From the NCBI GenBank assembly GCA_965219995.1, contig CBDCOX010000002.1, positions 3,136,001 to 3,200,000 on the forward strand: 64,000 bases of DNA, read 5' to 3'. Below, in pieces: positions 11,810 to 57,928 of this stretch. Position numbers and translations under genes: made by a program. Origin of the DNA: Candidatus Latescibacterota bacterium (GTDB lineage Bacteria > Latescibacterota > UBA2968 > GCA-2709665). The notes under the pieces were generated by a model that worked only from the letters and a program-made list of their open reading frames with translations, was not told where the DNA came from and searched no databases. Each line of letters starts with the position of its first letter. The first letter of the stretch is position 1.

Positions 11810-12090
11810 TAAAAACGGTGAGACGGGAGACGGGAGATGATTACCCTTCGTCCATCGGATATCGATACGGACTCGCGATATCTACCTCTGATGTCGAAGG
11901 CCCTACCCCCAACCCCGGGGAGACGGGAGACGTGAGACGGGAGATGATGTGAATGCTCTATGGTTTTTCTAGTCGCTATGATAACGGTAAATTAGTAGGC
12001 ACGGTTTTTGTGGAAACACTGCTGTAAATGTCTTCATCTACCGTCTACTTACGTCTCACCTCTTTCAGGTTTTTCCTCTACAGTCTTACC
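11810..12090 (+). repeat. Heptamer-arm element array (L-D-L-B-R), left flank of the four-helix-bundle gene
   Basis: Near-identical to 12513-12800. Confidence 0.9.
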
Positions 12091-12094
12091 GAAG

Positions 12095-12463
12095 CTAAGA
12101 TGATACTCTGCTTATCAATCCTGACAGCAAACCAAACAATCGATTCATTGTTTTTATTATTGATTGAACGTCATCTTCCGAACACATTTGGAGGCTTAGT
12201 GCAATTTCAAGCTGAGTATCCAACTCAACCAACGAACTCCTGGCGATTTCCAGAAATCTTTTGCGTTCAGAACTCGAAGATCTCGCCGACCCTTCGGCAA
12301 TGTTGGACGGTATTGAGACAGCAGATCGTCGTAACTGGCCGGTTAGGCCATAAAGTTCGGCGGAGGGGAATTCAGCGGTCAGCGTATAAATCTCGTTGAC
12401 CAGATCAATGCTCTTTTTCCATACCACAAGCTTCTTGTGGCTGAGTTCCATCATCGCGTGCAA
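12095..12463 (-). CDS. Four-helix-bundle protein (23S rRNA-IVS / S23 / Avd-like family)
   Basis: HKKLVVWKKSIDLV.EIY.LT..FP..ELYGLTGQLRRSAVSIPSNIAEG...FLEIARSSLVELDTQLEIA signature; visibly AT-richer than its neighbours; start may be ATG 12454. Confidence 0.93.
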   Translation of the reverse strand: MHAMMELSHKKLVVWKKSIDLVNEIYTLTAEFPSAELYGLTGQLRRSAVSIPSNIAEGSARSSSSERKRFLEIARSSLVELDTQLEIALSLQMCSEDDVQSIIKTMNRLFGLLSGLISRVSS

Positions 12464-12494
12464 GCGCTATCGTTCCTCCCCGCAGCCCCCAACC

Positions 12495-12908
12495 CCGGGG
12501 AGACGGTAGACGTAAGACGGGAGATGATTACCCTTCGCCCATCGGATATCGATACGGACTCGCGATATCTACCTCTGATGTCGAAGGCCCTACCCCCAAC
12601 CCCGGGGAGACGGGAGACGTGAGACGGGAGATGATGTGAGTGCCTGAAGAGCGGGTAGACGTTAGACGGGAGACGGGAGATACCGTGAGTGCCCTATGGT
12701 TTTTCTTGATTGCTACGATAACGGTAAATTAGCAGGCACGGTTTGTGTAGAAACACTGCTGTAAATGTCTTCATCTACCGTCTACCCTCTTACGTCTCAC
12801 CGGTTCTATTGCCCCGTGTGGTTTCACATCTTGCCAGAGGCATTGAGTAAGAACCAATGGGGCAAGGATGTTATCTACCGTCTACCCTCTCACGTCTCAC
12901 CGCTCTTA
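12495..12908 (+). repeat. Heptamer-arm element array (L-D-L-L-B-R-C-R), right flank
   Basis: Terminus CACCGCTCTTA includes the rplY stop codon. Confidence 0.9.
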
Positions 12909-13592
12909 TTCTTCGTCGTCCTCGTCTTCGTCCTTCTTGCCGCGTTCGATGACTTCGGGTTCCTGCATCTCTTCTTCTTCCTCGAGCACCTCTTCCTCTT
13001 CCTCTTCGACCTGAGCGATTGAAGGCGGAACCACGACAAACACGGACCGGTCGCTCTCGGTAACGATCTCCACGTCGCCGGACACGCTCAGATCGGAGAC
13101 GTGCACCGAGTCTCCGATATTCAGATGGTTCACGTCGAACCCGATGCTTTCCGGGATCTCGGCGGGCAGACACGACACCTCCACCTGGTGCAGCAACTGC
13201 TCCAGAATACCGCCTTCCGTGCGGACGCCGGCGGGAATGCCCTGGGGTTCGACGCGAACGTCCACGACGATTTTCTGGGTGAGCGAGATCCGGTAGAAGT
13301 CCGCGTGGAGGAGATGACCGCCAACGGGGTGGTGCTGCAGCTCCTTGACGATGGCGGTGTCTTCGGATTGATCCTCGCCGTTGCCCACAACCAGGGACAG
13401 AAGCGTATTCCGGCCGTGTTCGTGCAAGACCGTTGACAACGCCTTCGCATCGACCGAACAGGCGACGGACGCGCCGCGGTCGCCATAGACCACCGCGGGA
13501 ATCCTCCCGGTACGCCGGATGCGCTTGGCCTCGCCCTTTCCGGTTCCGGAGCGTACTTCGGCCTGCAAACTTACGCCGTTATTGTCAGCCAT
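12906..13592 (-). CDS. rplY: 50S ribosomal protein L25/Ctc
   Basis: GKGEAKRIRRTGRIPAVVYG, QHHPV..HLLHADF, GVRTEGGIL, EPEVIERGKKDE. Confidence 0.97.
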   Translation of the reverse strand: MADNNGVSLQAEVRSGTGKGEAKRIRRTGRIPAVVYGDRGASVACSVDAKALSTVLHEHGRNTLLSLVVGNGEDQSEDTAIVKELQHHPVGGHLLHADFYRISLTQKIVVDVRVEPQGIPAGVRTEGGILEQLLHQVEVSCLPAEIPESIGFDVNHLNIGDSVHVSDLSVSGDVEIVTESDRSVFVVVPPSIAQVEEEEEEVLEEEEEMQEPEVIERGKKDEDEDDEE

Positions 13593-13635
13593 TGACCGAT
13601 CCTCCACATTTTTTTACCAGAACTGCGGTTTTGCA

Positions 13636-13706
13636 CTGCCGGGCAGGGATTCGAACCCCGATAAACGGCTCCAAAGGCCGCTGTCTTACCCTTAGACGAC
13701 CCGGCA
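13636..13706 (-). tRNA. tRNA-Gln(TTG), CCA not encoded
   Basis: TGCCGGGTCGTCTAAGGGTAAGACAGCGGCCTTTGGAGCCGTTTATCGGGGTTCGAATCCCTGCCCGGCAG folds as a cloverleaf; conserved position after ispE. Confidence 0.96.
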
Positions 13707-13845
13707 TCAATAACCGGAACCCGGATGCTGCGTGCGATCAGTCCGCGAGCCATCGTTGAGGCGGCAATCGACCGGGGTCGTACGTTGTTATGACTATATA
13801 TTAATGTATAAGGAACCGCAAACGGCTCGATCCGATTCCGGACGG

Positions 13846-14718
13846 CTACGGTTCGCGCGGCCGGAACCGACACAGATAGACCCGGCGCCCGCGGCCCTGC
13901 ACCAGGCCAACCACGGCCGAAGCTTGCGAGGCCTCACGAAAAACGCCGAAGAGCGTGGATCCGCTGCCCGAAACCGAACAGGCAACCGCGCCCCGGGCGT
14001 CCAGCGCCGCAAGGATCCGCGCCACGTCGCCGGCGGCGGCTTCCACGAGGGGCAGAAAGTCGTTTTCCAGGCAGGCGAACAATCGGCCGGCGCAGATCCG
14101 GCCGGATTTTTCCGCAAAGTCCAGAAATGTACCATACGCTGCTGAATCTGTCAAGCCAATTCTCACGTTTCGATAGGCCCATGCGGTGGACACGGGGAAC
14201 CCCGGATACACCAGTACATACCAGAAATCGCCCTCCCAATCCACCGGTCGGATCCGCTCTCCGCGCCCCGTTACCACGGCCGTGCCGCCGGTGAGGAAGA
14301 ACGGGACGTCGGACCCGAGTTCCGCGGCGAGCGAGGCCAATCGCTCCGGCCCCAGACACGTTCCCCACAGCCGGTCCAGCGCGCGCAGCGCCGTGGCCGC
14401 GTTGGAACTCCCGCCGCCCAGGCCCGCGCCCGCGGGAATGTGTTTGACCAGGTCCACGCGCACCCCGTTGCGTGCGCCCGTTGCCCGGCGGAGGATTTCA
14501 ACGGCGCGGTACACGAGGTTCTCCGGCCCCGCGGGAACGTCCGGACGGTCGGCGCGGACCAGGGTTTCTCCGGGCGCGGCGGGCGTGAACACCAGCCGGT
14601 CGCACAGGTCCACCGTCTGAAGCACGGAGACGATATCGTGAAAGCCGTCCGGGCGGCGGCGCAGGATCTTCAGGCCCAGATTCAGCTTCGCGGGCGAAAT
14701 TTCAACAACGCGATCCAT
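13846..14718 (-). CDS. ispE: 4-diphosphocytidyl-2-C-methyl-D-erythritol kinase
   Basis: PAKLNLGL, RRPDGFHDI, KHIPAGAGLGGGSSNAA, LGSDVPFF, SGSGSTLF. Confidence 0.97.
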   Translation of the reverse strand: MDRVVEISPAKLNLGLKILRRRPDGFHDIVSVLQTVDLCDRLVFTPAAPGETLVRADRPDVPAGPENLVYRAVEILRRATGARNGVRVDLVKHIPAGAGLGGGSSNAATALRALDRLWGTCLGPERLASLAAELGSDVPFFLTGGTAVVTGRGERIRPVDWEGDFWYVLVYPGFPVSTAWAYRNVRIGLTDSAAYGTFLDFAEKSGRICAGRLFACLENDFLPLVEAAAGDVARILAALDARGAVACSVSGSGSTLFGVFREASQASAVVGLVQGRGRRVYLCRFRPREP

Positions 14719-14730
14719 TGGGAAAACCCT

Positions 14731-15175
14731 TAAAGGCGGTGAGACGGTAGACGGGAGACGGGAGATGATGACCCTTCGCCGATCGGATGTGTCGATACGG
14801 ACTGACGATATTTTCCGGCGATAGCGAAGGACCTCTCCGCCCGGCCCCCCTCCCCTGGTGAGACGTAAGACGGGAGACGTGAGATATTGTGAGTGCCCTA
14901 AAGGCGGGTAGACGTAAGACGTGAGACGGGAGATGATATGAATGCCTGTTCGGTATCATCTCTTGCCGCAGGCAGAAAGGAAGAACCAATCGGGCAAGGA
15001 CGTCTTCTACCGTCTTGCGTCTCACGTCTCACCGCTTTCATCTACCGTCTACCGTCTTGCGTCTAACGGGTTTTATTGCCCCATGTGGTTTCACATCTTG
15101 CCAGAGGCATTGAGTAAGAACCAATGGGGCAAGGACGTCATCTACCGTCTACCCTCTTACGTCTCACCGGTTTTT
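14731..15175 (+). repeat. Heptamer-arm element array (L-D-L-L-C-R-R-C-R)
   Basis: Same arms and modules, between the ispE start and its putative promoter. Confidence 0.9.
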
Positions 15176-15182
15176 GGCGCTC

Positions 15183-15210
15183 ATGATAACCCCGGTGGTC
15201 GTTCTGTCAA
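15183..15210 (-). promoter_or_regulatory. Putative sigma70 promoter for the ispE operon
   Basis: TTGACA-N16-TATCAT on the minus strand. Confidence 0.45.
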
Positions 15211-15367
15211 GCGCCAAACGGCCGCGGGGCGGCGGGGGCGACGGGCCCGGGAGGCGGGGGCATCTGCCAAACTTGCAGTCCATCGTACCGGAGGACGTCC
15301 AACCGGAATTGCCGGGCGCCCGCCCCGAGTCAGGGCCCGCGCACGCCGGGGAAATCCAAGTTAGGGA

Positions 15368-15396
15368 TTGACGCCCCCGCGCAAATGTGATAAATT
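15368..15396 (+). promoter_or_regulatory. Putative sigma70 promoter (extended -10)
   Basis: TTGACG-N17-TAAATT with TG preceding the -10 box. Confidence 0.5.
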
Positions 15397-15445
15397 GAAT
15401 GACGCTGCCGCACGGCGCCGCAAACACCCATAACCCCCATAAAAT

Positions 15446-18400
15446 ATGCAACTTTCCCGCATTTTTGCCCCAACGGCCTCCCGGCCGCGGCTGCTTTGCG
15501 GCGCGATCGTCGGGCTGTGTATCCTGCTGGCCTGGTATGCGCCCGTTGCGGGGCAGGCCGCCGAGGGCGAGAGCGAAAGCATCGAGCTCGCGCAACGGCT
15601 CTTCGACAACCGGGATTATGCCAATGCGGCGCACGAGTTCCGGCGCTTCATCGCCTCGTATCCCACGAGCCCGCGGCTTCCCTCGGCGCTTTATCAACTC
15701 GGCGAAGCCCTTTTCCTGGGAGAACAGTACAGCGACGCCGTCGATGCGTACGACGACTTCCTCGTACGCTATCCGGGACGCCTGGAAGCGGACCCGGCCC
15801 TGCGGCGAAAGGCCGAAGCCCTGGAGCGACTCTCTGAATACGCGAGAGCCGGCGCCGCCTTCCGGGACGCGCACGACCGGTTCGCCGCGGGCAAACACGC
15901 CGCCAGAAACCTCCTCGCGGCGGGGATCAACTTCCACAAAGGAAAGGACCTGGACGCCGCGGGCAAGGCGTTCGGCGCGCTGGTCGCCAATTTCCCGCAA
16001 TCCGGACTCGCCGCCGAAGCCGGGTACCGGTGGGGGCTCGTACTGCTGGACGCGGGTCGTCAGGAAGAGGCGCTGGGCCGGTTCAAGACCATATCGGATC
16101 CGGGCGCGGGTTCCAAATGGACGCCGGACGCCCTGCTCGAGATCGGAAAAACCGCCCTCGCAATGAACGACGTGAAGGAGGCGGAGGCGGCTTTCGGCAC
16201 GCTGCGCAGGGCGTATCCCAGGCATGCCGCGGCCGGCGCCTCCTACCTGGAACTGGCCGCCTGGTTCGAAGGCCGCGAGAACTGGCCGAAGGCCGCTGAA
16301 ATCTACGGCCTCGCCCGGGCCAATCTCCCGCAAAGCGAAGGCCGCAGGCAGGCGGTGCTGGGCCTGGCCGGCGCCTGGCTCGAACTGGGACGCACAGCCG
16401 AGGCGCTCGCGCTCTTCACCGAGTTCATCAACGTCTATGCGGACAGCCCCTACCTGGACCGCGCCTGGCTGGGCCTGGGACGCGCCCACGCCAACCTGAA
16501 ACAAACCCGCGAGGCCCGGAATGCGTTCCGGCGCCTCCGGGAACTCTTCCCGGAATCGGAGGCCGGCATCCAGGCGCACGCGGAGATGGGCGACGCATGG
16601 CGGGCCGCGGGCGCGCCACGAAGGGCATTGAGGGCATACCGGGCCTACGCCGATCAGGCGGAAGCGCCCGGCGCCGTCGAATCGGCCCGGCTGCGGATCG
16701 CGCGTACGTACGAACATGATCTGGGATGGCACGATCTGGCGCTGGCGGTCTACCGGGACCTGGCAAAAACTGCTCAGGCCGCGGTTGCCGGCGAGGCGCA
16801 GTTCGGCATCGCCCGTATTCTGGATCGAACCGGGCGGACGGACCGGGCCATTCGCGAATACCGGGCCTACCTGCAGAAATACAACAGGCGCGCCGGCGAG
16901 GCCGAAAATCGCATCCGCTACCTGCGGGAGTTCGGCCGCGAGGCCCCCGGCGTACCGCCTGCCGACCTGGCCGCGCTGCTCTCGAGTTTCCCGGCAATCG
17001 CGGACGATCCGCGGGCCCGATTCGTACTGGGAAAATTCCTTCACGACCGGCGGCATTACGCCCTCGCCGCCGAAACACTCGTCAAAGCGCTGTCGGGAGA
17101 ACCCCCGCCGCCGTTTGCCGCCGAGGCCGCCTGGCTTCTGGGCCGGAGCGCCCTGAAGGCGGCGCGGAAAGCGGAACTGGAAGGCAGGCGCGAGCAGGCG
17201 TCGTCCTGGCGGGAGAAGGGCCTCGCGGCGCTTGCCGAGGTCGAGACCGGGCATCCCGAAAGCGAGTTCGCGGACGACGCCGGCCTGTTGCGGATCGAAA
17301 CGGAGACCCGCCTGCCTGCCGCGCCGGACAGCGCGGCGCAGGCAGGCGAAGTCGAAACGGACACGGCGAGCGCGAGGCGGCGACTCGCGGCGTACGGCGA
17401 ATTCGCGAAGACGTACCCCGGGTCCGACCGGCTGGACCGGGCGCTGCTGGGGATGGCCGACGCGATGCGCACGCTCAGCCGGGTGGAACCCGCGTGGATC
17501 GACTCCGCCCTGACGACCTACGGCGATATCATTGACGCGTATCCGAAGCGCCCGGCGGCGGAACGGGCGGCCTACGGCATCGGACTGTGCCAGGCCCTGA
17601 AGAAAGACTACGCGGCCGCCGAGGAAACGCTGCGCGATTTCCTCTTCGCGTATCCGCAAAGCGACCTGGAGAGCCACGCCAGGTACGAGCTCGGCCGCAT
17701 CCTCCTGGAACGGGGGTTTCCCAGGAGCGCGGCGGACGACCTGGCCGAGCTTCTCGCGGGTCCGGCGTCGCCCGAGCTGGCGCGGTCCGCGCGTAACCTG
17801 CTGGCCGAGAGCTACTTTCGGGCCGAAGATTACCGTCGCGCCATCGAAATCGACACCGAACTGCTTTCTGTCGGGCCCGACGAGCCCGCGCTCCGGCGGC
17901 TCGCGCGGTCCTACGAGGCGAACGGACAGGCGGCCGAAGCCATCGAAACCTGCCAGACCCTGCTGAACGCGTATCCGAACGCGGCCGACGCCGACAGCTT
18001 CGCGTACGCCCGGGCGCGGCTGCTGGCGGACCTGGACCGGGAGCCCGAAGCCGTCGCGGCTTTCAAAGCGTTCCCCGGACAATATCCCGAGAGCCCGCTG
18101 AAGGCCAACGCGGGCATGGCCCTGGCATCCCTCCTGTTCGAAGCCGGAGAATACCGGAATGCCCTGGCGGCCATTGCGCTCATCCCCGCGGACGCGAGGG
18201 ACGCGCCGGTCGCCGCGAGCGAAGTCATCAGCCTGTTCCGCCTGAAACGCGTGCAGGACGCAAAAAAAGCAGCGGGCAGGTTCAAGAAGACCTACCCGAA
18301 CAGCCGCGAGTGGCTCGGCAGATTCAGGAACGAGGAGGGCCGGTACTATCTGAACGCCGGCAACTTCAAGAAAGCCCGTCAGATTTTCGAAGGCGTGGTC

Positions 18401-19174
18401 AGGGACCGACCCGGCGGCGAGGCCGAGGCCGAAGCCGCCTGGTATCGCGTCAGGACACTGAAAAGAGAGGGTCCGGAGGAAGCATACCGGGAAGCGCTCG
18501 CGGCCTTCGTGAAGACCCGTTCAGGCAGCAGCCGCTGGTCCGCCGCGGCCCTGGAGCTGGCCGATATCCTCTACGACGGCGGGGACTTTGAACGGGCGTC
18601 CAGAGCCTACCGGAACGTGCTCGAGGCCGGCCCGTCGCCCGAAGAAACGCCGAAGGTGCTGTCCAGGCTGATGAAGGTCCACAGGCGCCTGAAGCTGCTG
18701 GATACCGCGATCGCCTACGCCAACCGGCTCGTGCAGGAATTCCCGGGGCACCCGCTCGCGTCGGACGTCCGCATCGATATTGGAACCATGCTGCACGACA
18801 ACAAGCAATACAGGCTGGCAATCGCCCGGCTGACGCCCTTGCTGAAAAACGCCGAGGGGAACGACTGGTCGACCATCCAGTATTGGCTCGCGAAGAGCCA
18901 CTTCGGACTGCGAGACTACGAAAGCGCGAAACGGGAATACCTGAAACTTCAATATCAGTTTCAGGGCGCCCCGCAGTGGGCGGCCACCGCGCACGACGGC
19001 CTCGCCAACTGCTACGAAGCCCAGGGGAACTTCCAGGAGGCGATCCGGGAGCTCGAGTCCATCCGGCGACGGGAGGGGGCCGCCAGCGACTTCGGCCTCC
19101 AGGCCGGAAAACGCATCGAAATGCTGAAGGCTCTCCTGAACAGCAGCCGGGAATCCGCGCCGCGTGGGCCGTAA
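15446..19174 (+). CDS. Large exported TPR-repeat protein (BamD/CpoB-like repeats)
   Basis: Signal peptide; many A...F..FI..YP.S.....ALY.LG repeats. Confidence 0.85.
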   Translation: MQLSRIFAPTASRPRLLCGAIVGLCILLAWYAPVAGQAAEGESESIELAQRLFDNRDYANAAHEFRRFIASYPTSPRLPSALYQLGEALFLGEQYSDAVDAYDDFLVRYPGRLEADPALRRKAEALERLSEYARAGAAFRDAHDRFAAGKHAARNLLAAGINFHKGKDLDAAGKAFGALVANFPQSGLAAEAGYRWGLVLLDAGRQEEALGRFKTISDPGAGSKWTPDALLEIGKTALAMNDVKEAEAAFGTLRRAYPRHAAAGASYLELAAWFEGRENWPKAAEIYGLARANLPQSEGRRQAVLGLAGAWLELGRTAEALALFTEFINVYADSPYLDRAWLGLGRAHANLKQTREARNAFRRLRELFPESEAGIQAHAEMGDAWRAAGAPRRALRAYRAYADQAEAPGAVESARLRIARTYEHDLGWHDLALAVYRDLAKTAQAAVAGEAQFGIARILDRTGRTDRAIREYRAYLQKYNRRAGEAENRIRYLREFGREAPGVPPADLAALLSSFPAIADDPRARFVLGKFLHDRRHYALAAETLVKALSGEPPPPFAAEAAWLLGRSALKAARKAELEGRREQASSWREKGLAALAEVETGHPESEFADDAGLLRIETETRLPAAPDSAAQAGEVETDTASARRRLAAYGEFAKTYPGSDRLDRALLGMADAMRTLSRVEPAWIDSALTTYGDIIDAYPKRPAAERAAYGIGLCQALKKDYAAAEETLRDFLFAYPQSDLESHARYELGRILLERGFPRSAADDLAELLAGPASPELARSARNLLAESYFRAEDYRRAIEIDTELLSVGPDEPALRRLARSYEANGQAAEAIETCQTLLNAYPNAADADSFAYARARLLADLDREPEAVAAFKAFPGQYPESPLKANAGMALASLLFEAGEYRNALAAIALIPADARDAPVAASEVISLFRLKRVQDAKKAAGRFKKTYPNSREWLGRFRNEEGRYYLNAGNFKKARQIFEGVVRDRPGGEAEAEAAWYRVRTLKREGPEEAYREALAAFVKTRSGSSRWSAAALELADILYDGGDFERASRAYRNVLEAGPSPEETPKVLSRLMKVHRRLKLLDTAIAYANRLVQEFPGHPLASDVRIDIGTMLHDNKQYRLAIARLTPLLKNAEGNDWSTIQYWLAKSHFGLRDYESAKREYLKLQYQFQGAPQWAATAHDGLANCYEAQGNFQEAIRELESIRRREGAASDFGLQAGKRIEMLKALLNSSRESAPRGP

Positions 19175-19219
19175 ACCGCCGGCGCCCGAACACGAACCCG
19201 ATTCACCCGAACGACCGCG

Positions 19220-20767
<1,548 letters not shown>

Positions 20768-20769
20768 AC

Positions 20770-21463
20770 AAGCGGGGAGACGTTAGACGGGAGACGGGAG
20801 ATGATCACCCTTCGCCCATCGGATATCGATACGGACTGGCGATATCTACCTGCGATACCGAAGGCCCCTCCCCGCACCCCTCGCCCCCGCAAACCTCTCC
20901 CCCCGGCCCCTCAACCCCGGGGTAGACGTAAGACGTGAGACGGGAGATACCGTGAGTGCCCTATGGTTTTTCTTGATTGCTACGATAACGGTAAAATAGC
21001 AGGCACGGTTTGTGTAGAAACACTGCTGTAAATGTCTTCATCTACCGTCTACCCTCTTACGTCTCACCGGTCTTATTGCCCGCTGTGGTTTCACTTCTTG
21101 CCGGAGGCACAAGGGTAGAACCAATTGGGCAAGGATGTCTTCTACCGTCTACCCTCTCCCGTCTCCCCGAATTTACGCAGACCTCTCCCCCCGGCCCCTC
21201 AACCCCGGGGTAGACGTAAGACGTGAGACGGGAGATACCGTGAGTGCCCTATGGTTTTTCTTGATTGCTACGATAACGGTAAAATAGCAGGCACGGTTTG
21301 TGTAGAAACACTGCTGTAAATGTCTTCATCTACCGTCTACCCTCTTACGTCTCACCGGTTTTATTGCCCGCTGTGGTTTCACTTCTTGCCGGAGGCACAA
21401 AGGTAGAACCAATCGGGCAAAGATGTCATCTGCCGTCTCACGTCTACCGTCTTACCGCTTTTT
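20770..21463 (+). repeat. Heptamer-arm element array with a 288-bp tandem duplication
   Basis: L-D-[L-B-R-C-R]x2; units start at 20893 and 21181. Confidence 0.92.
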
Positions 21464-21464
21464 C

Positions 21465-21493: not shown

Positions 21494-21567
21494 CACCCGT
21501 GACACGCGAATAACAGACGAACGCATCTTCGAGCCACCCAGGAGACCTGAGAAAGGGGATTTTCCCG

Positions 21568-48651: not shown

Positions 48652-51600
48652 ATGCGAAACTCCATCCATCGTGTTCCCGCGGTTGAGGGTTTGAGTGTGT
48701 CTGTATTCCTCGCTGTCGCACTTTTCATTTCGTCAGCGTCCATCGGCCACGCCTCGGTCCGTGACGGCGACGGCGCGCCGGTCTGCGAGCCGATTGATTT
48801 TTCGAGGGCGCCGCTCGAGGGCGCGGACGTCGCCGGGAAGCGGGCGTTCAACCTGAATACGGGCGATCCCCGCGCGGTGCGGGTGGTTTATTTCGTGCCG
48901 GCAGACAGTCTGTTTCGCCCCGCCGTGGAGGATTCGATCCGGCGGGCGATCCGGCGGATCCGGACCTTTTATGCCGAACAGATGGAGGCGCATGGCTACG
49001 GCAACCGAACGTTCGACGTAGAGACCGGCGACGACGGAGCGCCGCGGATCCATCGCGTTACGGGACAGCACGCCGAGGACCGCTACGCCGGCGACCAAAG
49101 GCATTCCAGGGTGTTCAGCGAGATCCGGCAGAATTTCGATACCGGCGCGAACGTCTATGTCGCCGTTATCGACTATATTCGCAGTCCCACCGCGAGGGGC
49201 GGCAGACGGGGGAAAATCGGCGGCGAGGCGTCGGTCGGCGGGAATTTCAAATGGGAGACGGTTGCCCACGAACTGGGACACACATTCGGCCTGGAGCACG
49301 ATTTTCGCGACGGCGATTACATCATGTCGTATAGCAACAGACAGAATCGGATTTCGGCTTGCGCGGCCGAATTCCTCTCTGTGAACCCCTATTTCAATGC
49401 CGGAAGATCGATCGACCAGGCGCAGCCGCCATCCATCGAACTCCTGTCGCCCAGGCGTTATCCCGCCGGCTCGAAGAGCGTCCTGTTGCAGCTCAGAGTC
49501 GAAGATCCGCAGGGGCTGCATCAGGTGACGCTGTTCGCGACAACGAGTACGATACGCCCGGGCTTTCCGAGGGGGTATTATGAAGTAACGGCATGCCGTG
49601 GACTGCCGAACGGGACGCATGCGGTTGTCGAGTTTGAATACGACGGCGATATCCCGTCTTCTTCAGGTTCCGCGCTTCCTGACACGGTTGCGCATCCGCT
49701 CCATGTCAAGGCCGTTGACAAAGACGGAAACGTCGGCCGGTTGTCCCTTGACCTCGTCGAAATCTCCGCGCACCACGTCGCGGCGTTGGAAGGACATAGG
49801 GACCGGGTCGAATCCCTGGCCTTCTCGCCCGACGGGTCGATTCTGGCATCCGGATCGTCTGACGATGCCGCCAGGCTTTGGGACGTCGCCGGTCGGGAGC
49901 AACTCGCCACGCTCCGACAAGCGGGGCGTATAAAATCCGTTTCCATCTCGCCCGACGGAAAAACCCTTGCGTCATCTTCGGATGACCATACGGTCAAACT
50001 CTGGGACCTCATTGAGCGGGAGCTAATTTCCGTCCTCAGAGGACATAAGAGTCCGGTCAATGGCGTGGCGTTTTCGCCGGACGGAAATTTGCTTGCCTCC
50101 GCTTCGGACGACCATTCAGTCCGGCTCTGGGACGTCGCAGAACGGGAACACACCGCCACGCTCGAAGGACACGCGAGTCCGGTCAATGGCGTGGCGTTTT
50201 CGCCGGACGGAAATCTGCTTGCCTCCGCTTCAAACGACCATTCAGTCCGGCTCTGGGACGTCGCAGAACGAGAACAAACCGCGATGCTCGAAGGACACGC
50301 GAGTCCGGTGAACGGCGTGGCGTTTTCGCCGGACGGAAATCTGCTCGCCTCCGCTTCGGACGACCATTCAGTCCGGCTCTGGGACATCGCAAAGCGAGAA
50401 CACGCCGCCACACTCGAAGGACACGCGAGTCCGGTGAACGGCGTGGCGTTTTCGCCGGACGGAAATCTGCTTGCCTCCGCTTCGGACGATCGAACCGTGC
50501 GGCTCCGGGACGTCGCAAAACGGGAACAGCTCGCGATTCTTCCGCATACTGACGCATTCGCTTCGGTCGTCTTTTCACCGGACGGTACGATCCTCGCCGC
50601 GGGTTCCGTCACGGTGGAATTATGGGAAACGTCCGGGTGGAGGCTGCCCCGCGCCGCGTCGTTGACGACAGTCTCAGGCGACAACCAGAAAGGCGCGGCG
50701 GGGGACGCATTGGCGAATCCCCTGGTTGTCGAAGTTCGAGACCAATACGATCAACCGTTGGCGGGTGCGCAGGTCACGTTTACGGTGATTGGCGGCGACG
50801 GAAGCGTGGGCAGTGGATTCACAACCGTCACCGCCACCGCCGGCCCGGACGGCAGGGCGCAAATCGTACTCACGCTGGGTCCGAACCCCGGGAAGAATAC
50901 GGTCGAGGCATCCATCGTCGGGTTCGAGGTGCAGACGTTTAACGCCGTGGGCGTCGGCACGCCTCCGGTTCCGGGTGCGGACCGCAACTATCCCACGCAG
51001 CATTTGCCGAAAAACGCCATCGTCCGCCTGGGAAAGGGCGCCATTGGCCGGACCGACAGGGCGATCGGGTTTTCTCCAGACGGGAAACGCTTCGCCGTGT
51101 CGAGCGGGGTCGGCGTCTGGCTTTACTCCGTGGACGATCTGGAGAGGGTCGCTCTGCTTCCCTCCGGCATCGTCCAGTCACTGGCCTTTTCGTCCGACGG
51201 CGCCACGATTGCGGCAGGCGGCAGCTGGAGGGAACACGCGGAGGTCAGGCTGTGGGACGCGGCAACGGGGACAAATACGGCCACGGTTGATTTCGAAAGC
51301 TGGGGGACGATATATCTGTCGCTTTCTCCGGACGGCCAAACCTTTGCTTACCCCGCCGGCGAAGGCGTCATCCATCGGTTGGACGCGGCCACCGGGAGGT
51401 CCGCGCCCCCTCTGGAGGGAGACTGGTCGGTTGGCCCCTCGATGTCCTTTTCTCCGGACAGTACAACCATAGCCGTGGCACACGAGGACGGAACGATCAC
51501 GCTCTGGGACCTGGCGGTACCCGCCAACAGCCTCACCCTGGAGGGACATCGCCGGGAGGTCGTCTCCGTGGCATTTTCTCCGGACGGGAGGGCTCTCGCG

Positions 51601-53256
51601 TCTGCATCCGACGACGGCACGGTCAAGCTGTGGGACGCCGCGTCGGGCGCCGTGACCGCCACTGTCCGAGGGGATAAATGCCGGGCTGCGTGCGTGGCTT
51701 TTTCACCGGATGGCGCCAAACTCGCTTCCGGATGGACGGATCGGACCGTCACACTATGGGACATTGCGGGGGAAAGGACAATCGCTACGTTCAGCCGCCA
51801 TCGGGACTGGCTGTCCGCGGTTGTATTTTCTCCCGACGGGAAGACGCTTGCCTCCGCATCTGAGGATGGTGAGGTCTACCTGTGGGACCTGGCAACAGGA
51901 AACGCCACCGCCGTTCCCGGCCATACGGAATCGGTCTGGGGTATGGCATTCTCGCCCGACGGTTCCACGCTGGCTTCCCGCGCCGGCACAGCCAGGGGAA
52001 AAGTCAACCTATGGGACGTTGCAACAGGCTTGAAGACCGTCACCCTGGGCGGGCATGAGGGGCCGCTCAGAACGGTTTCTTATTCTCCGGACGGGGCGAC
52101 GCTGGCGACCGGATCGCATGACCGGACGGTCAGGCTGTGGAACCTGGACAGAAACAGCACCTTCGCGACGCTCCGGCATTCGAATGAGGTATCTTCGTCA
52201 TCGTTTTCTCCAGACGGAACGACTCTCGGTACCGGGGATTCCAAAGGGAACGTCATCCTCTGGGACGTGAATACGCAGCGGCAAATCAACGCGTTCAATG
52301 TCCTGGGCGAGAGAGTCACAACGCTTGTCTTTTCGCCGGACGGCGCTACCCTGGCTGCCGGAACGTACGGCGGTGAGGTGCGGTTGTGGGACGCGGCGAC
52401 GGGTACCGCGATCCGGGATCTGGAAGGACACTCTCAGTCGGTCCTCTCCATGACCTTTTCACGGGATGGGACAACACTGGCTACCGGCTCATTCCACGAT
52501 TCCGTCAAGGTGTGGAACCTGGCGACGGGAACCGCCGGCGCCGCGTTGAAGGGAAAATGGATGGATACTGTCACATTCTCCCCCGACGGTACGATTTTCG
52601 CCACCGGTACGCAGGAAAGGCTGGCCAGGCTGTACGACATGTCGACGGGCGACGTCATCGCCAGGATTGAAGGGCACCATCACTACGTCACCAGCGTGTT
52701 GTTCACTCCGGACGGCAAGACGCTTGCAACGGGATCGCAGGATGGGACAATTCTGCTGTGGGACCTGCAACGCCTTCTATCCCGACCTCAACTGCTGAGG
52801 CCGGTCTCAGGGATCCAGCAGAAAGCGCCGGCCGGGACGGGATTGGCCCAGCCGTTCGTGGTCTCCGTTCGGGACCAGAATGGCGAACCGTATGCCGGCG
52901 CCACCGTCACCTTTGTCGTTATTGCAGGCGGCGGCACGCTGTCTGCAACCACCGACACAACCGATGCCAATGGGCAGGCCGGGACCACCCTGACGCTGGG
53001 GCGCCAGCCGGGCGCGAACATCGTCGTCGCAACGGTAGCGGATCTCGATCCGGTGACTTTTCGCGCCGTCGCCCAGGCCAATCCAGACTTCGACGGCGAC
53101 GGTACGGTTGGCTTTGGCGATTTTGTGCTGTTTGCGGGGAAGTTCGGACTGAGTCGGGACGACGACGGATTTGAAGCGCGGTACGATCTGGACGGAAACG
53201 GTACGATCGGATTCGGCGACTTTCTGATCTTCGGGAACGCCTTTGGGAGGACGTAA
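48652..53256 (+). CDS. Secreted metzincin + WD40 + Ig-like (Big_1) + dockerin-like multidomain protein
   Basis: Signal peptide; HELGHTFGLEHD plus YIMSY Met-turn; ~20 GH...AFSPDG..LAS...VRLWD repeats; two SG.nQ.G.AG..LA.P.VV.VRDQ domains; C-terminal DFDGDGTVGFGDF...DLDGNGTIGFGDF. Confidence 0.9.
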   Translation: MRNSIHRVPAVEGLSVSVFLAVALFISSASIGHASVRDGDGAPVCEPIDFSRAPLEGADVAGKRAFNLNTGDPRAVRVVYFVPADSLFRPAVEDSIRRAIRRIRTFYAEQMEAHGYGNRTFDVETGDDGAPRIHRVTGQHAEDRYAGDQRHSRVFSEIRQNFDTGANVYVAVIDYIRSPTARGGRRGKIGGEASVGGNFKWETVAHELGHTFGLEHDFRDGDYIMSYSNRQNRISACAAEFLSVNPYFNAGRSIDQAQPPSIELLSPRRYPAGSKSVLLQLRVEDPQGLHQVTLFATTSTIRPGFPRGYYEVTACRGLPNGTHAVVEFEYDGDIPSSSGSALPDTVAHPLHVKAVDKDGNVGRLSLDLVEISAHHVAALEGHRDRVESLAFSPDGSILASGSSDDAARLWDVAGREQLATLRQAGRIKSVSISPDGKTLASSSDDHTVKLWDLIERELISVLRGHKSPVNGVAFSPDGNLLASASDDHSVRLWDVAEREHTATLEGHASPVNGVAFSPDGNLLASASNDHSVRLWDVAEREQTAMLEGHASPVNGVAFSPDGNLLASASDDHSVRLWDIAKREHAATLEGHASPVNGVAFSPDGNLLASASDDRTVRLRDVAKREQLAILPHTDAFASVVFSPDGTILAAGSVTVELWETSGWRLPRAASLTTVSGDNQKGAAGDALANPLVVEVRDQYDQPLAGAQVTFTVIGGDGSVGSGFTTVTATAGPDGRAQIVLTLGPNPGKNTVEASIVGFEVQTFNAVGVGTPPVPGADRNYPTQHLPKNAIVRLGKGAIGRTDRAIGFSPDGKRFAVSSGVGVWLYSVDDLERVALLPSGIVQSLAFSSDGATIAAGGSWREHAEVRLWDAATGTNTATVDFESWGTIYLSLSPDGQTFAYPAGEGVIHRLDAATGRSAPPLEGDWSVGPSMSFSPDSTTIAVAHEDGTITLWDLAVPANSLTLEGHRREVVSVAFSPDGRALASASDDGTVKLWDAASGAVTATVRGDKCRAACVAFSPDGAKLASGWTDRTVTLWDIAGERTIATFSRHRDWLSAVVFSPDGKTLASASEDGEVYLWDLATGNATAVPGHTESVWGMAFSPDGSTLASRAGTARGKVNLWDVATGLKTVTLGGHEGPLRTVSYSPDGATLATGSHDRTVRLWNLDRNSTFATLRHSNEVSSSSFSPDGTTLGTGDSKGNVILWDVNTQRQINAFNVLGERVTTLVFSPDGATLAAGTYGGEVRLWDAATGTAIRDLEGHSQSVLSMTFSRDGTTLATGSFHDSVKVWNLATGTAGAALKGKWMDTVTFSPDGTIFATGTQERLARLYDMSTGDVIARIEGHHHYVTSVLFTPDGKTLATGSQDGTILLWDLQRLLSRPQLLRPVSGIQQKAPAGTGLAQPFVVSVRDQNGEPYAGATVTFVVIAGGGTLSATTDTTDANGQAGTTLTLGRQPGANIVVATVADLDPVTFRAVAQANPDFDGDGTVGFGDFVLFAGKFGLSRDDDGFEARYDLDGNGTIGFGDFLIFGNAFGRT
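50041..50531 (+). repeat. Four near-identical 126-bp WD40-coding tandem repeats
   Basis: Units start at 50041, 50167, 50293 and 50419. Confidence 0.92.
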
Positions 53257-53445
53257 AATGCGGTGAGAGGGGAGACGGGAGACGGGAGATATTGTGTGCC
53301 CCGTGTGGTTTCACATCTTGCCCAAGGCATTGAGTAAGAACCAATGGGGCAAGGACGTCATCTAACGTCTACCGTCTACCGTCTCACCGGTGTTAACCTC
53401 TCCACCCAGCCCCCTCTCCCGGGGGGAGAGGGGGAGACAACCAGG
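53254..53445 (+). repeat. Heptamer-arm element (L-C-R) plus hairpin
   Basis: Begins with the WD40-gene TAA (TAAAATGCGGTGAGA). Confidence 0.9.
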
Positions 53446-54209: not shown

Positions 54210-55033
54210 TATCCCGCCTGCCTGGCGGCAGGCACCCTTTCCTGAAGGAAAGGGGAAGGCGGGTGCTCGAGGTTTTCGCGAAGGTGAACATTTGCCGGCG
54301 CAGGCAGACAGGAATGTCTGCCCCACCCTCAAAACGACGCCTTTTGCGTGACGGTCGGGAGAAGGCGTGACGGAAACACTTCGCTTATGGCTATTGCCAT
54401 ACCTGTCATTCTGAGCGAAGCGAAGAATCTCCCGTCTTCTGGATCGTCCTATACACAGCGACGCGGTAAACACATTGGCGCGGACACATCTTCCGCCCTC
54501 TAGCTTCATCCCATGCCACAGGAGATCCTTCGGCGGCCTGTCGTTCTCAGCGACATCGAAAAGCCCCTACCAAAACGTGGTCATTGAGCTTGTCGAAATG
54601 CCCGTATTCAGGCAGCCCGTAATGCATTCGCAATCCCTTCGCCGGCCCTTCGACCCTTCGACAAGCTCAGGGCACCGCATGCTCAGGGAACGGCTCAGGG
54701 CGCGGACACATCTTCCGCCCTCTGGATTCAATCGAATGACAAGAGGCAGGCAGACAGGAATGTCTGCCCCACCCTCACAGCGGCTTCCTCGATGTCGTGA
54801 CAAGCGAACGGGGAGTGAACGTACCGCCTGCCAGCCCGCGGCGAATGACAGAACACGCTCGGGTATCATGCCATGCCGCAGTAGATCCTTCGTCAGCCTG
54901 CCTGCCGATGAGTCTCCGGCAGGCACAGCGGCTTCCTCAGGATGACAGTTTGGGCGATCGGCCGGCATGTCATTCTGAGCGACATCGAAGCAGGCAGACA
55001 GGAATGTCTGCCCCACCCTCACAGAGGATTCCC
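54210..55033. repeat. Mosaic of REP-like and GIY-YIG-flank-type repeats
   Basis: Three GGCAGACAGGAATGTCTGCCCCACCCTC copies; 54570-54700 is the reverse complement of the 30540-30680 motifs; 54818-55020 matches 33628-33825. Confidence 0.88.
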
Positions 55034-55035
55034 GA

Positions 55036-57837
55036 ATGCCCGGTCCCCGAAATCTCATTGCAATCCTGAAGCGTCACGTGGCGCCGCCGGCCGCAAGGCC
55101 GTTCGCCGTTGACCTGGGCCTGGCCGCCGGCATCTTCTGCGCGTGGCTGGCTCTGTGCGGTTTTTCGCCCGTGGTCGCGGCAGCGGCCGACGAGTTGCGC
55201 CTGGCCGTGAGGACCGGCCCATACCGGCTGCAATGGCCTCCTCTTGGGCCGGCCGTCGTCGCTCTCGCGGCCCTGCTCCTGGCGTGGGTCCGCCATCGCA
55301 CCCCTTCATTACGATCGGCCCTCCAAGAACGCTTCCAGCGCGCAAGTTTACTGGCCGCCGCGCTGCTGGCCGTGCGTCTCCTCGCCCTCCTCGATCCGCT
55401 CGTCTACGTCTTTCCGTTCCTGACCATCCTCTGGTCGCCCCACTCGATGTGGGCGGTTGCGCTCGTCTTCCTCGGATACGTACATCTGCCACTCACGTGC
55501 ACATCCTGGTCCCCTCGAAAGACCTTTATCACGGCGGGCACCCTCCTCGTGGTGTGCCTGCCGATGTACGTACTCTACGCGCTTTATTTCTGCCAGGTCA
55601 CCATGCTCCACAGCGATGAGGGCCAGTACCTGAGGGTGACGCAGAGCCTCGTCCACGACGGGGACATGGACCTGGCCAACAACCTCAATATCGAGCAAAT
55701 CAAGGAATTCCACGTCAGGGACTTCGCCGTCAACAAAGCGTCCGCCGCTCCCGAAGGCAAGGTCCACTCTACCCATCCGATCGGCCTCTCTGTCGCCCTT
55801 GTGCCCGCCTATTGGTGGGGTCTGGAACAATGGCAGAACCCGCGCCTGGCCACGGCGCTGTTTATCGTATTGCTTGCAAGCATCTGCGTTCCCCTGCTCT
55901 ATATCTTTCTGATCCGGCTGGGCGGCAAGCCCTGGGCTGCGGTGACGGCCACGGGCATATTTGCCATTACAGCGCCGTACTTCTACTATTCGAACCAGAT
56001 CTACCCGGAAATTCCGGCCATCGCCATCGTCCTGGGCGTTCTCCTGGCCCTTGTTCACTGGCAGATCCCCGGCGGCGCGTACCGCTCGATTGGATGCCGG
56101 GAGATTCCCCTCCTGGCAGTACTGACCGCGCTGCTTTGTTGTCTGCCCTTTTTGCATCCGCGCCTTGTTCCACCGGGGCTCGTGTGCGGCGCTCTCGTTC
56201 TGTTACAGGCCTGGAAGAACCCGGGACGGTGGCGCGCTCTCTTCACAATCAGCCTGGTCGTCGCTGGAGGCCTTGGCGCACTCATAGCCTTCCACTATGC
56301 CTTCAGCAACGACTGGCTGGGGCCGCTCCGCCCCGGAAGCGGCGCATGGGGCGAGGACGCTCTCGATATTGCGATCTGGAAGATCTCCCTCTCAGGGCAC
56401 TGGTTACACGTCGGCAGAGGCATCCTCAACACGTCGCCCATTTACTTCTTCGCTGTGTTCGGACTGCTGACCCTTGTCCGGTTCCGAGATCGAAGGCTGC
56501 TGTTAGCCGCAATCCTGTATGCCGTCACCGCTGGCATCAACGGACTTCACACATTGTGGGTATTCGGGCACGACCTTCCCAGCCGCTTTATTGTAACCGC
56601 GCTTCCGGTGATTGTCCTTGGTTTGGCCCTGGGCCTGCCGCCCCTTCTGCGCCGGGCGTCCACGAGCTTCTTGACCGGGCTGGCCCTGGTGATCAGCGCC
56701 GAGAGCGTGCTTCACACGCTGACACTGCCCGAGAGTGGCTATAAGGGTGTAAATCTGCTAGGGCGCACTATCAATCATTTCTATCCAATTCATCTCCATT
56801 TCACCGAACCGGGCCTTCAGGATCTGCCACTGATCGATATAGGCTTCTGGGGATTACTCGCACTTGCGCTGCTCTTCCGTACCCTGCATTCCGGATTTCG
56901 GGCGGCTGTCATCGTGACAGTCGCCTTCGCACCATTCATTTGGGGTCAAACCGATAAACTGGTCTCCCGCCTGCAGAGTAGCAGGTCGCCCTATATGCCG
57001 CACCTCTCCGTTGCTGACACGCCATATTCATATTCATTCGAAGTCCGGTTGAGGGCAATAGTCGAGAGTGCTTTAAGCCCGGAAGGCACGCTTCGTGTGA
57101 GGCAAGGCCACACGCCAGCAGGTACGTTTAATTATTCACCAATGTACGATCCCTTGATCGGCGTACCCCACCGTGGCATTTACCAACTGAGATTTCGCGG
57201 CCTTCGGGTCAAGGCCCCGCCCGGCAAACTCGCGGGCTATCTGGCTCTTTCGCGAGGCTATACCGTACCGGCAGTTTCCAGATGGAACACCATATCGTAC
57301 CATCCGCTCTTCGGCGACGATGACGACGAAGACCTGTCACTCGCATTCGACATTGATGGGCAGCGCATTTGCTATATCCACGGGATTTATACGGGAACCG
57401 GCGAATTGTCCCTGGACGGTATTAAAGCCACCTTCACGCCCTTTGCAGAGTTGCCTGTTCCGAAAACCACTGAAATAGCCCGCATTGCCTATGAGACGCG
57501 TGAGGGCCCGATCAAGTTTGTCGGTAAGGTAGCCAACTTGACAAGAGGACAGTATCGGGTCGTGTTCAAGCTTACGGGTTCGACGTTCAAACGTCTTTTC
57601 GAGCGCTTCCCCGCACCAATCAAGACTGTCGTCTATGGTTTGCAAAAGCCCGCTCGCGTTCTGACACTGAGTACTCATCCCCCCTGGTGGCTGTCGATCC
57701 CCTTCGCGAACGATGGGCCATGGAATGTGCGATTCAGATTGGACCAAACCGAGGACGTTCAGATTACTCTGCAATACGACGGCGATCTGGACCTGACCGA
57801 AATGGTGCTATACAGGGAGACGTACGAACACCGGTGA
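55036..57837 (+). CDS. Large membrane protein, GT-C-like with a soluble C-terminal domain
   Basis: Many TM helices, SDEGQY...SLVHDGDMDL loop, QIYPE; 3' third AT-richer. Confidence 0.65.
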   Translation: MPGPRNLIAILKRHVAPPAARPFAVDLGLAAGIFCAWLALCGFSPVVAAAADELRLAVRTGPYRLQWPPLGPAVVALAALLLAWVRHRTPSLRSALQERFQRASLLAAALLAVRLLALLDPLVYVFPFLTILWSPHSMWAVALVFLGYVHLPLTCTSWSPRKTFITAGTLLVVCLPMYVLYALYFCQVTMLHSDEGQYLRVTQSLVHDGDMDLANNLNIEQIKEFHVRDFAVNKASAAPEGKVHSTHPIGLSVALVPAYWWGLEQWQNPRLATALFIVLLASICVPLLYIFLIRLGGKPWAAVTATGIFAITAPYFYYSNQIYPEIPAIAIVLGVLLALVHWQIPGGAYRSIGCREIPLLAVLTALLCCLPFLHPRLVPPGLVCGALVLLQAWKNPGRWRALFTISLVVAGGLGALIAFHYAFSNDWLGPLRPGSGAWGEDALDIAIWKISLSGHWLHVGRGILNTSPIYFFAVFGLLTLVRFRDRRLLLAAILYAVTAGINGLHTLWVFGHDLPSRFIVTALPVIVLGLALGLPPLLRRASTSFLTGLALVISAESVLHTLTLPESGYKGVNLLGRTINHFYPIHLHFTEPGLQDLPLIDIGFWGLLALALLFRTLHSGFRAAVIVTVAFAPFIWGQTDKLVSRLQSSRSPYMPHLSVADTPYSYSFEVRLRAIVESALSPEGTLRVRQGHTPAGTFNYSPMYDPLIGVPHRGIYQLRFRGLRVKAPPGKLAGYLALSRGYTVPAVSRWNTISYHPLFGDDDDEDLSLAFDIDGQRICYIHGIYTGTGELSLDGIKATFTPFAELPVPKTTEIARIAYETREGPIKFVGKVANLTRGQYRVVFKLTGSTFKRLFERFPAPIKTVVYGLQKPARVLTLSTHPPWWLSIPFANDGPWNVRFRLDQTEDVQITLQYDGDLDLTEMVLYRETYEHR

Positions 57838-57860
57838 CGCGGCACACACCGCTGGACAGA

Positions 57861-57928
57861 AAAGCAGGCAGACAGGAATGTCTGCCTTACCCTCACAGCG
57901 GCTTCCCCAAGATGACAGTTCGGGCGAA
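57861..57928. repeat. REP-like repeat copy
   Basis: AAGCAGGCAGACAGGAATGTCTGCCTTACCCTCACAGCGGCTTCCCCAAGATGACAGTT. Confidence 0.85.

Follow-up and report, generated by a model that had tools for sequence, protein, structure and literature searches.

Heptamer-armed hairpin units in the spacers of a Latescibacterota genome: probably dispersed elements, with one type that resembles miniatures of a PF05635 cassette

The window analysed here, a 64,000-nt stretch of a Candidatus Latescibacterota bacterium (C2:3136001-3200000 of genome G000, which has 5.43 Mb and a G+C content of 60.7%), carries short intergenic hairpin units whose arms are runs of a 7-base repeat, and among them lies a PF05635 gene at 12095-12463(-), hereafter called IVSp. 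The explanation that we consider probable is that these units are dispersed elements resembling miniature inverted-repeat transposable elements (MITEs), that type B at least derives from heptamer-armed PF05635 cassettes, and that the units fill hypervariable spacers, in which copies are now and then duplicated or converted locally. Observation covers the anatomy, census, orientation and ranks of the units, the presence and absence of the genes, and the series that links type B to a gene-carrying parent, the heptamer-armed PF05635 cassette; the movement of the units and the origin of two locally matched pairs are inferred. The units would spread as dispersed mobile DNA, co-directed within a neighbourhood, and matched neighbours would stem from occasional local duplication or conversion, candidate examples being 100-nt and 288-nt tandem copies, the A-B block at IVSp and the C+D block at a WD40 gene. 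A sequence-only reading of the same DNA had taken the repeats for the boundaries of accessory-gene cassettes and for chromosome-wide landing pads. This does not agree with the distribution of the units, since the same units flank the core genes L9, S6, H+-PPase, Pth, L25/tRNA-Gln/IspE, the TPR protein, the sigma-54 activator and HtrA. That accessory genes are met in unit-holding spacers would reflect the turnover of these spacers, the fastest in the genus.

As read by eye in the spacers, a unit begins with a left arm, AAAGGCGG followed by (GAGACGN)3-GAGA, and ends with a right arm, TCTACCGTCTACCCTCTTACGTCTC followed by CCGCTTT, which is the inverted counterpart of the left arm; left arms are runs of (GAGACGN)3-4 heptamers with the complement on the right side. 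Between the arms lies one of three core types, the A hairpin of about 80 nt, B of about 92 nt or C of about 72 nt, and the units are chained with the GC-rich hairpins D (CCTCTCCCCCCGG...GGGGAGAGGGGGAG), E and F (GGCAGACAGGAATGTCTGCC) and with 49-nt 'mini-B' stubs. An arm-paired hairpin fold was obtained for four full B or C units (z = -7.8, -5.2, -5.0 and -2.7), and an A unit without right arm gave no such fold (z = +0.8). Full B and C units share with MITEs the hairpin-forming terminal inverted repeats. The mini-B stubs, located at 7347-7395, 11064-11112, 12607-12655 and 14860-14908, consist of a left arm and the first 13-15 nt of the B core, directly followed by the start of the next unit, and may have arisen by nested insertion, by slippage or as scars of deletions; one 49-nt mini unit is bracketed by the 9-nt repeat GTGAGTGCC. 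At Rfam gathering thresholds tRNA-Gln was the sole match in the window, with no known RNA family over the hairpin units and no rRNA. The exact arm pattern GAGACGNNAGACGNNAGACGGGAGA was met in at least 121 stretches at at least 80 loci in many phyla, and Gemmatimonadota, Acidobacteriota, Latescibacterota, Planctomycetota, Bacteroidota and several Proteobacteria are among the matches listed. The unit-bearing and other repeat-bearing places of the window are as follows.

851-1079, +: left flank of the 1282-aa gene, member of a family of about 25 copies with GCTGACA-type heptads
5717-6627, +: spacer between the 1282-aa gene and L9, with a B unit, hairpins, a tandem pair of C units and, at 5874-6102, the right-hand copy of the 229-nt repeat
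7112-7651, +: spacer from L9 to S18/S6, with an A-like unit, A, a 49-nt mini-B and two C units
8364-8840, +: spacer between S6 and H+-PPase, with A, B and two tandem C units (90.5% alike)
10915-11234, +: spacer between H+-PPase and Pth, with A, mini-B and C
11811-12066, +: left A+B block beside IVSp
12491-12898, +: right block beside IVSp, with A, a 49-nt mini-B, B and C
14731-15165, +: spacer between IspE and the TPR gene, with A, mini-B and two C units
20768-21463, +: gene-free, an A unit and then a B-C-D block in a 288-nt tandem duplication
23128-23318, +: C+D unit left of the DUF433 gene
24428-24841, +: C+D unit with one more C unit, right of the DUF433 gene
48184-48494, +: B unit, then the left C+D copy of the WD40 gene (48346-48494)
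53256-53445, +: right C+D copy of the WD40 gene, with its own left arm
54981-55036, +: GGCAGACAGGAATGTCTGCC hairpin repeat left of the GT-C-like gene
57855-57910, +: hairpin repeat right of the GT-C-like gene

Profile searches of the genome, with double hits of the partly palindromic C core removed, returned 264 units at 168 spacer-level loci. Of these units 182 are of type C, 64 of type B and 18 of type A, and 146 lie on the + strand as against 118 on the - strand; a less refined census by BLAST arrived at 266 loci and 54 kb. Unit density peaks in the 3.1-3.2 Mb bin, and most spacers between 5.7 and 25 kb of the window hold units, with core-gene and accessory-gene neighbours alike. Mean identity between copies is flat over distance (0.800 below 1 kb, 0.787 at 1-10 kb and 0.779 beyond 100 kb), and 50 C pairs with at least 93% identity, counted in the list before de-duplication, lie mostly 0.1-2 Mb apart and in both orientations. 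We read such near-identical copies, far apart and in both orientations, as the signature of dispersed mobile DNA.

A local component is also visible. The best match of a unit is the adjacent unit of the same type in 13 of 182 C units (permutation mean 2.0, maximum 10), in 8 of 64 B units and in 3 of 18 A units. The tandem copies 20888-21175 and 21176-21463 are 94% alike, their B cores being 100% identical. The window has 17 adjacent C pairs, and no more than four of them, the one at the WD40 gene and three in tandem, exceed the 95th percentile; pairs around Pth+IVSp and around the TPR-sigma-54 block stand at the 84th-86th percentile, and those around L9, S18/S6, H+-PPase, L25-IspE and HtrA at the 19th-44th. 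The flanks of core blocks may be matched as well: identity is 99.1% between the B units 12682 and 20949, which have 8 kb of core genes between them, and 94.8% between the C units 12802 and 15069, on either side of L25, tRNA-Gln and IspE (93% for the longer segments 15037-15169 and 12770-12902).

Pure local gene conversion, in which old independent unit insertions were later homogenised between neighbouring direct copies, would account for several of these observations. High-identity local pairs are direct in 26 cases and inverted in 2, matched pairs span core genes (12653-12902 and 20920-21169 are 92% identical over 251 nt), and the flanks of IVSp are mosaic, with A cores 98.8% and B parts 91.8% alike. 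We nevertheless regard it as quite improbable as the sole process: the identity of neighbours at 1-10 kb is not raised over that of copies beyond 100 kb, the window's adjacent pairs mostly rank from the 19th to the 86th percentile, and the matched tracts stop at module borders, which fits duplication of whole blocks equally well.

The evidence on the origin of type B comes from the PF05635 gene and its relatives in the genus.

12095-12463, -: IVSp, four-helix bundle, '23S rRNA intervening-sequence protein' (PF05635, E = 1.5e-36, profile positions 1-105 of 106)

Orthologues with 83-92% amino acid identity occupy seven further places in six congeners: between L9 and S6 in G006, G011 and G014 (the latter copy 88% alike); G003, G008 and G013 share another locus, at which G014 has its second copy. 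The position between Pth and L25 in G000 is a third chromosomal site in the genus, and the earlier suggestion that the four-helix-bundle gene is mobile is borne out by these three different sites. Homology between the G000 and G014 copies covers the open reading frame (ORF) and about 10 nt on each side only (379 nt at 89%), and the ORF, with 91.5% nucleotide identity, is as conserved as the most conserved core gene (H+-PPase, 90.5%). In the window the ORF is intact and sits between two A-B blocks, while the cassette's own arms and flanks are truncated; the opposite-sense heptamer runs around it belong to the neighbouring units. In congeners the cassette has the order left arm, flank of about 60 nt (tgatatgagtgccc...ggcacgggt), antisense ORF, upstream flank (...ctatcctttttgac...caaggtctttc) and right arm, and inverted 7-base arrays bracket the orthologues in G006, G008, G003, G011, G013 and G014 as well as the gene at C2:4903622.

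Positions 3-78 of the 117-position B profile align without gaps (76 positions) to the left flank of the cassette and the stop region of its ORF, the match being to G008, G003 and G013 with 28 bits and E about 3e-8. Derivatives of about 215 nt that retain both cassette flanks and both arms are present in G000 at C2:2334106 and C2:3436648, and congeners hold internally deleted derivatives with both flanks beside full cassettes. The full PF05635 cassette, the derivative of about 215 nt and the B unit of about 145 nt (64 copies) form a deletion series, and B units look like its smallest members, internally deleted miniatures of the cassette. For type B, the type examined, internal deletion of a longer parent was found, as known from MITEs.

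Three PF05635 genes are present in G000, each in its own heptamer flavour (GAGACGN, AAGAATT or GAAGGAA). The AAGAATT gene at C2:4903411-4904015 has an adjacent deletion derivative that consists of the 3' end of the ORF and an arm (93% over 184 nt). The GAAGGAA gene at C2:2476256-2476546 is preceded by a putative DUF433 gene, as read from the letters; its nearest arrays on both sides are co-directed, with inverted arms further right. Distant PF05635 genes in relatives are accompanied by CAGCTAT-, CCAGTGG- or TCTCACT-type arrays, and two of them (L054 and L061) have same-direction tandem arrays. A literature search found nothing that links PF05635 genes to heptamer arms, and nothing on these repeats or on repeats in Latescibacterota.

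PF05635 proteins are named after intervening sequences (IVS) of 23S rRNA. An IVS by location was ruled out for the window gene, which lies between the pth and L25 genes in a window where Rfam reported no rRNA. The IVS of Coxiella burnetii 23S rRNA is described as a 428-nt 'selfish' element with terminal inverted repeats, a 28-bp stem and an S23p ORF in the loop, and as cleaved by RNase III; the same paper cites the idea of a past or present mobile element and treats origin and function as open (PMC4990558). The inverted-repeat stem around an ORF of the PF05635/S23p family is what the congener cassettes have in common with this element. In contrast to 23S rRNA IVS, the elements described here lie in spacers of protein genes, have arms of 7-base repeats and coexist with hundreds of ORF-less miniatures, and the window copy has lost its native arms.

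The setting of the units is best seen from the genes of the window, labelled by Pfam scan.

1459-5307, -: 1282-aa gene, no Pfam family
Next to the right, all -: L9, S6, H+-PPase and Pth (Pfam)
After IVSp: L25, tRNA-Gln and IspE
After IspE: TPR protein, sigma-54 activator and HtrA (Pfam)
23542-24219, +: DUF433 and MerR helix-turn-helix gene (Pfam)
28476-29546, -: tyrosine recombinase of XerC/D type (Pfam Phage_integrase and SAM-like domain)
30150-30461, -: GIY-YIG gene (Pfam, E = 4.3e-18)
Middle of the window: glycosylation genes, Ogt, UvrC, his genes and polysaccharide genes (Pfam)
48439-53256, +: WD40 ORF (Pfam)
55036-57837, +: GT-C-like 933-aa membrane protein
Right part of the window: PhyH and AddAB (Pfam)

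Two further ORFs, 54475-54945 (156 aa) and 481-1020 (179 aa), have no Pfam match and overlap repeated DNA; because tblastn found 53 and 25 partial copies of them genome-wide, respectively, they are probably not genes, or genes only in part.

Syntenic DNA of 80 kb was compared from each of five congeners (G001, G002, G008, G010 and G014), in all of which the gene order is conserved. The enclosed genes had been described as accessory, and this is correct for four of six. IVSp between Pth and L25 and the WD40 gene at its site were found in none of the five fetched regions. The DUF433 gene is missing in four of the five and partial in G001 only (aa 98-225, 92%), and the GIY-YIG gene is likewise missing in four, its only relative (38%) lying in a different G008 spacer. 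Most relatives do have the 1282-aa and GT-C genes. The former occupies the same place in all five with 61-84% amino acid identity and is fast-evolving, not accessory; the latter is syntenic in G010, G001 and G002 (62-68%) and displaced in G008, and no copy was found in the region fetched from G014.

A tyrosine recombinase gene in the window, together with imperfect palindromes of about 100-150 nt that stand in one orientation between single genes, gives a superficial resemblance to integrons, whose cassettes are separated by imperfect palindromic attC repeats, one gene each and all in one orientation. An integron-like system, in which the units would be attC-like sites and an enzyme such as the recombinase at 28476-29546 would move single-gene cassettes, is however extremely improbable. 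The genes between the repeats include core genes, namely those for ribosomal proteins, pth and H+-PPase, lie on both strands and keep their order in five of five congeners. The window has no other tyrosine recombinase than this one, which belongs to the conserved core, is of Xer type and is syntenic in all five congeners with 83-94% amino acid identity. Moreover, unlike an integron, the units are dispersed genome-wide over 168 loci instead of forming a single array, with no integron integrase or attI.

While the genes between them stay in place, the spacers differ strongly even between close relatives. G010 and G001 are close to G000 (92-96% nucleotide identity in core genes), and the units in their spacers are of other kinds altogether, most of them having CAGCNNT-type arms. 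None of the five congeners has an A or B unit in the Pth-L25 spacer; in G002 and G014 this spacer holds one C unit whose position matches that of the G000 unit beside L25. Variable gene content between conserved flanking genes is the mark of the minimal mobile elements of Neisseria, and the Flippase-PhyH, HtrA-PMT, uvrC-ogt and Pth-L25 spacers resemble them in their variable content, in having no mobility gene nearby and in the divergence of some adjoining genes. Exchange by transformation and flanking homology may take place here too. The hairpin units that also colonise the spacers set them apart from the Neisseria case.

Divergence of the adjoining genes is unevenly distributed. Against the baseline of 92-96%, nucleotide identity to G010 is 81% for HtrA, 87% for the PMT gene, 78-86% for the GT-C gene and 80% for AddAB, and AddAB is nearer to G001 than to G010; in the comparison with G010 and G001 these genes fall in 21000-26000 and 55000-64000 of the window. 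This pattern suggests mosaic recombination blocks. The DUF433 gene and the right side of the WD40 gene adjoin such blocks, and the flanks of IVSp and of the GIY-YIG gene are at baseline. Because the adjoining genes are diverged, the DUF433 gene, and the WD40 gene on its right side, may have been replaced via recombination in neighbouring genes. The IVSp and GIY-YIG genes look like clean local insertions, small and self-contained.

At the GIY-YIG locus the flanks belong to a separate palindromic repeat family, CCCTGAGCTTGTCGAAGGG...GCATTTCGACAAGC / CCCTGAGCTTGTCGAAGGG...GCATTTCGACAAGCTCA.

29997-30130, +: complete palindromic unit left of the GIY-YIG gene
30525-30712, +: partial and complete palindromic unit right of the GIY-YIG gene

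Gene and repeats form a block of about 740 nt (29939-30725) that splits uvrC and ogt, with the 13-nt TTTCACCACGTCC at both ends (29939 and 30713). The two genes abut in G010 and G001, and other repeat modules stand at their junction in G014 and G002. Intact short-loop copies of the palindrome exist elsewhere, for example near C2:1658757.

The sequence-only reading rested on six genes that it saw enclosed by direct repeats more similar to each other than to the rest of the family. We ranked each flank against all copies genome-wide and aligned left and right flanks directly. All six pairs are present, at or near the positions given for them, and only two of the six are locally matched. The flanks of the WD40 gene, 48346-48494 and 53297-53445, are 96.0% identical over 149 nt and reciprocal best matches, the next best copy reaching 85%. 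Those of IVSp are matched in their A module: the gapped alignment over 286 nt gives 78%, the A part (11815-11956 and 12503-12643) 96.5% over 142 nt, and the A cores 98.8%, compared with 95% for the next best copy in the genome. The B parts, in contrast, are 91.8% alike, and the right one is 99.1% identical to the copies at 20949 and 21237 and to one 1.5 Mb away. For the other four genes the genome-wide ranks do not single out the partner. The DUF433 flanks (23128-23318 and 24434-24616) are 82.2% identical over 185 nt, at the 60th percentile of C pairs, with copies elsewhere at 83-84%; the GIY-YIG flanks are 77.9% identical over 95 nt, each absent from the top seven matches of the other; the GT-C flanks (54981-55036 and 57855-57910) reach 86% over 56 nt (91% over 45 nt), with distant copies at 94% and 91%; and the flanks of the 1282-aa gene (851-1079 and 5874-6102) reach 79.5% over 229 nt, five other genomic copies being better (84-87%). 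Private motifs had been claimed for the WD40 flanks. GGTGTTAACCTCTCC is indeed confined to the two copies genome-wide, but GGGGGAGACAACCAGG occurs at four places and CATCTTGCCCA at seven. Nor are these flanks sisters, as flanking pairs were expected to be, in a tree of the C core and right arm; with 98 columns this tree has low resolution, and the closeness of the WD40 flanks is visible only over the composite C+D.

The WD40 protein (48652-53256, +), predicted to be secreted, opens with a signal-peptide-like stretch and combines the zinc-protease motif HELGHTFGLEH (HExxHxxGxxH) with some 20 WD40 repeats, with Ig-like domains and with a tail that resembles a dockerin. Its family has 15 matches in G000 and similar numbers in relatives, with no orthologue as donor or second site in 14 congeners at E <= 1e-140; the best relative is 55% identical, and the gene appears species-specific among the genomes searched. 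In the six genomes compared, the Flippase-PhyH spacer contains the WD40 gene (G000), an array of repeats (G010) or an unannotated insert on the other strand (G008 and G014, alike in the two), and in G001 and G002 it is short. A palindrome-like TGTCGCATTTTGC(GACA) stands upstream of PhyH in G002, G008 and G014 and upstream of the WD40 gene in G000 (48572-48590; loci of the relatives: L024, L032, L036 and L040); it may be an operator that the insertion parted from PhyH.

For the two matched pairs, at WD40 and IVSp, repeat-mediated insertion deserves separate consideration. A circle or fragment carrying the gene and one unit block would have recombined homologously with a resident copy. Such a crossover would leave flanks like those of the WD40 gene, reciprocal best at 96% with GGTGTTAACCTCTCC nowhere else in the genome, and a single crossover would give the observed arrangement of arms, the left C+D copy having no left arm of its own and the right copy having one. 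The G010 spacer holds one C+D, within a longer array, that is 82-84% like either G000 copy; the A cores at IVSp are 98.8% alike; and both genes are missing from their sites in all five congeners. On the other hand, the Pth-L25 spacers of the five congeners contain no A or B unit, and the cross-species homology of IVSp stops about 10 nt outside the ORF, which implies that the repeats did not travel along. No close WD40 orthologue is available as donor or second site, equally matched pairs surround core blocks or no gene at all, and four of the six claimed pairs are unmatched. Among congener spacers no empty site with a lone flank-matching copy was found, the C+D of G010 being only 82-84% similar. 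We consider this route rather unlikely, and nothing here favours Campbell-type insertion of the WD40 gene and IVSp over local duplication or conversion.

The runs that contain window DNA are chiefly sponge and marine metagenomes. Circles or empty sites, which the sequence-only reading expected, were not seen in the Logan contigs of four runs on 11001-31000, which can neither show nor exclude either. Some contig joints (e.g. 30038 to 30540 and 15171 to 23275) looked like excisions. This interpretation was rejected, as three joints were traced to other repeat loci (C2:1658757, 3190605 and 4110886) and their exact junction strings were not found. A low-cover stretch at 25-26 kb (runs X14, X1 and X2) was not counted as evidence.

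That accessory genes appear enclosed by direct repeats follows from the orientation of the units. In the window every unit (18 full C, 7 B and 8 A) is on the + strand, whether it adjoins - genes (1.4-14.7 kb and 24.9-33.7 kb) or + genes. Genome-wide, neighbouring units within 10 kb have the same direction in 161 of 180 cases, and the units form 58 orientation runs, compared with 131.5 +/- 8.1 expected (minimum 100 in 5000 shuffles). Counted by locus, agreement is 48/54 within 5 kb, 66/84 within 10 kb and 14/25 at 50 kb or more, and the runs number 58 against 84 +/- 6 expected. Concordantly, repeat pairs of at least 85% identity in the six syntenic regions are all direct (283, 74, 29, 115, 24 and 52), with none inverted. 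Because neighbouring units are nearly all co-directed, almost any gene here is 'enclosed by direct repeats'. Replication strand was rejected as the cause, since runs alternate inside one GC-skew arm, and so was gene strand, since in the window + units are found in clusters of - genes as well as of + genes. The short-range agreement may constrain the copying mechanism.

The units may be compared with several known repeat classes. MITEs, the repetitive extragenic palindromic (REP) sequences and bacterial interspersed mosaic elements (BIME) of enterobacteria and the Correia elements of Neisseria are short, abundant intergenic hairpin units with terminal inverted repeats, modular and nested. Type B resembles MITEs further in its apparent origin by internal deletion of a longer parent. 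Unlike MITE and REP systems, the putative parent has no known transposase, G000 has no gene for a Y1 or REP-associated tyrosine transposase (RAYT), the arms are heptamer arrays and the orientation is coherent over about 10 kb. In cyanobacteria, short tandemly repeated repetitive (STRR) heptamer sequences form intergenic arrays of 7-base period that host small nested mobile repeats; they differ from the arrays found here in phylum and in sequence, and we know of no description of cyanobacterial heptamer repeats that mentions a link to PF05635.

Several observations weigh against dispersed MITE-like units as a full account. No transposase or other mobilising enzyme was identified for the units, and the Y1 transposase family PF01797 has no match in G000, compared with matches in 6 of 14 control genomes. 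No consistent target-site duplication was found at unit ends, and none is established for the units. RNAalifold returned no consensus fold for the alignment of C units minus the left arm, and two short helices without co-variation for B units. The coherence of orientation over about 10 kb, independent of gene strand, fits no explanation tried. Among adjacent pairs, matched ones occur at two of three accessory-only intervals but at about one of 18 core-gene intervals, which hints, on small numbers, at a link between gene gain and the duplication of repeats. Finally, an ATPase-like accessory gene of G001 stands between two similar blocks of A-type, D and E.

This ATPase-like gene follows directly after a B-type left end (arm and tgatatgagtgccc...aatggct; L025-L028, joined-region 29186-31233), and may be other cargo in or beside a unit; its flanking block pair is not among the pairs of at least 90%. 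Taken together with the WD40 gene it would exemplify a further reading, in which the hairpins are non-autonomous progeny of PF05635 elements, mobilised by that family, and act as co-oriented homology pads that let whole genes insert with duplication of the pad. We find this quite improbable. Were it true, this candidate phylum would have a way of gaining genes that needs no recombinase.

Altogether, we prefer to regard the units as dispersed MITE-like hairpins that turn over in hypervariable spacers. The cassette system proposed from the sequence would have been a new route of gene mobility, a claim that the evidence does not carry. The three chromosomal sites of IVSp and the deletion series are direct comparative evidence that intervening-sequence protein elements are, now or recently, mobile outside rRNA and that they give rise to MITE-like progeny.

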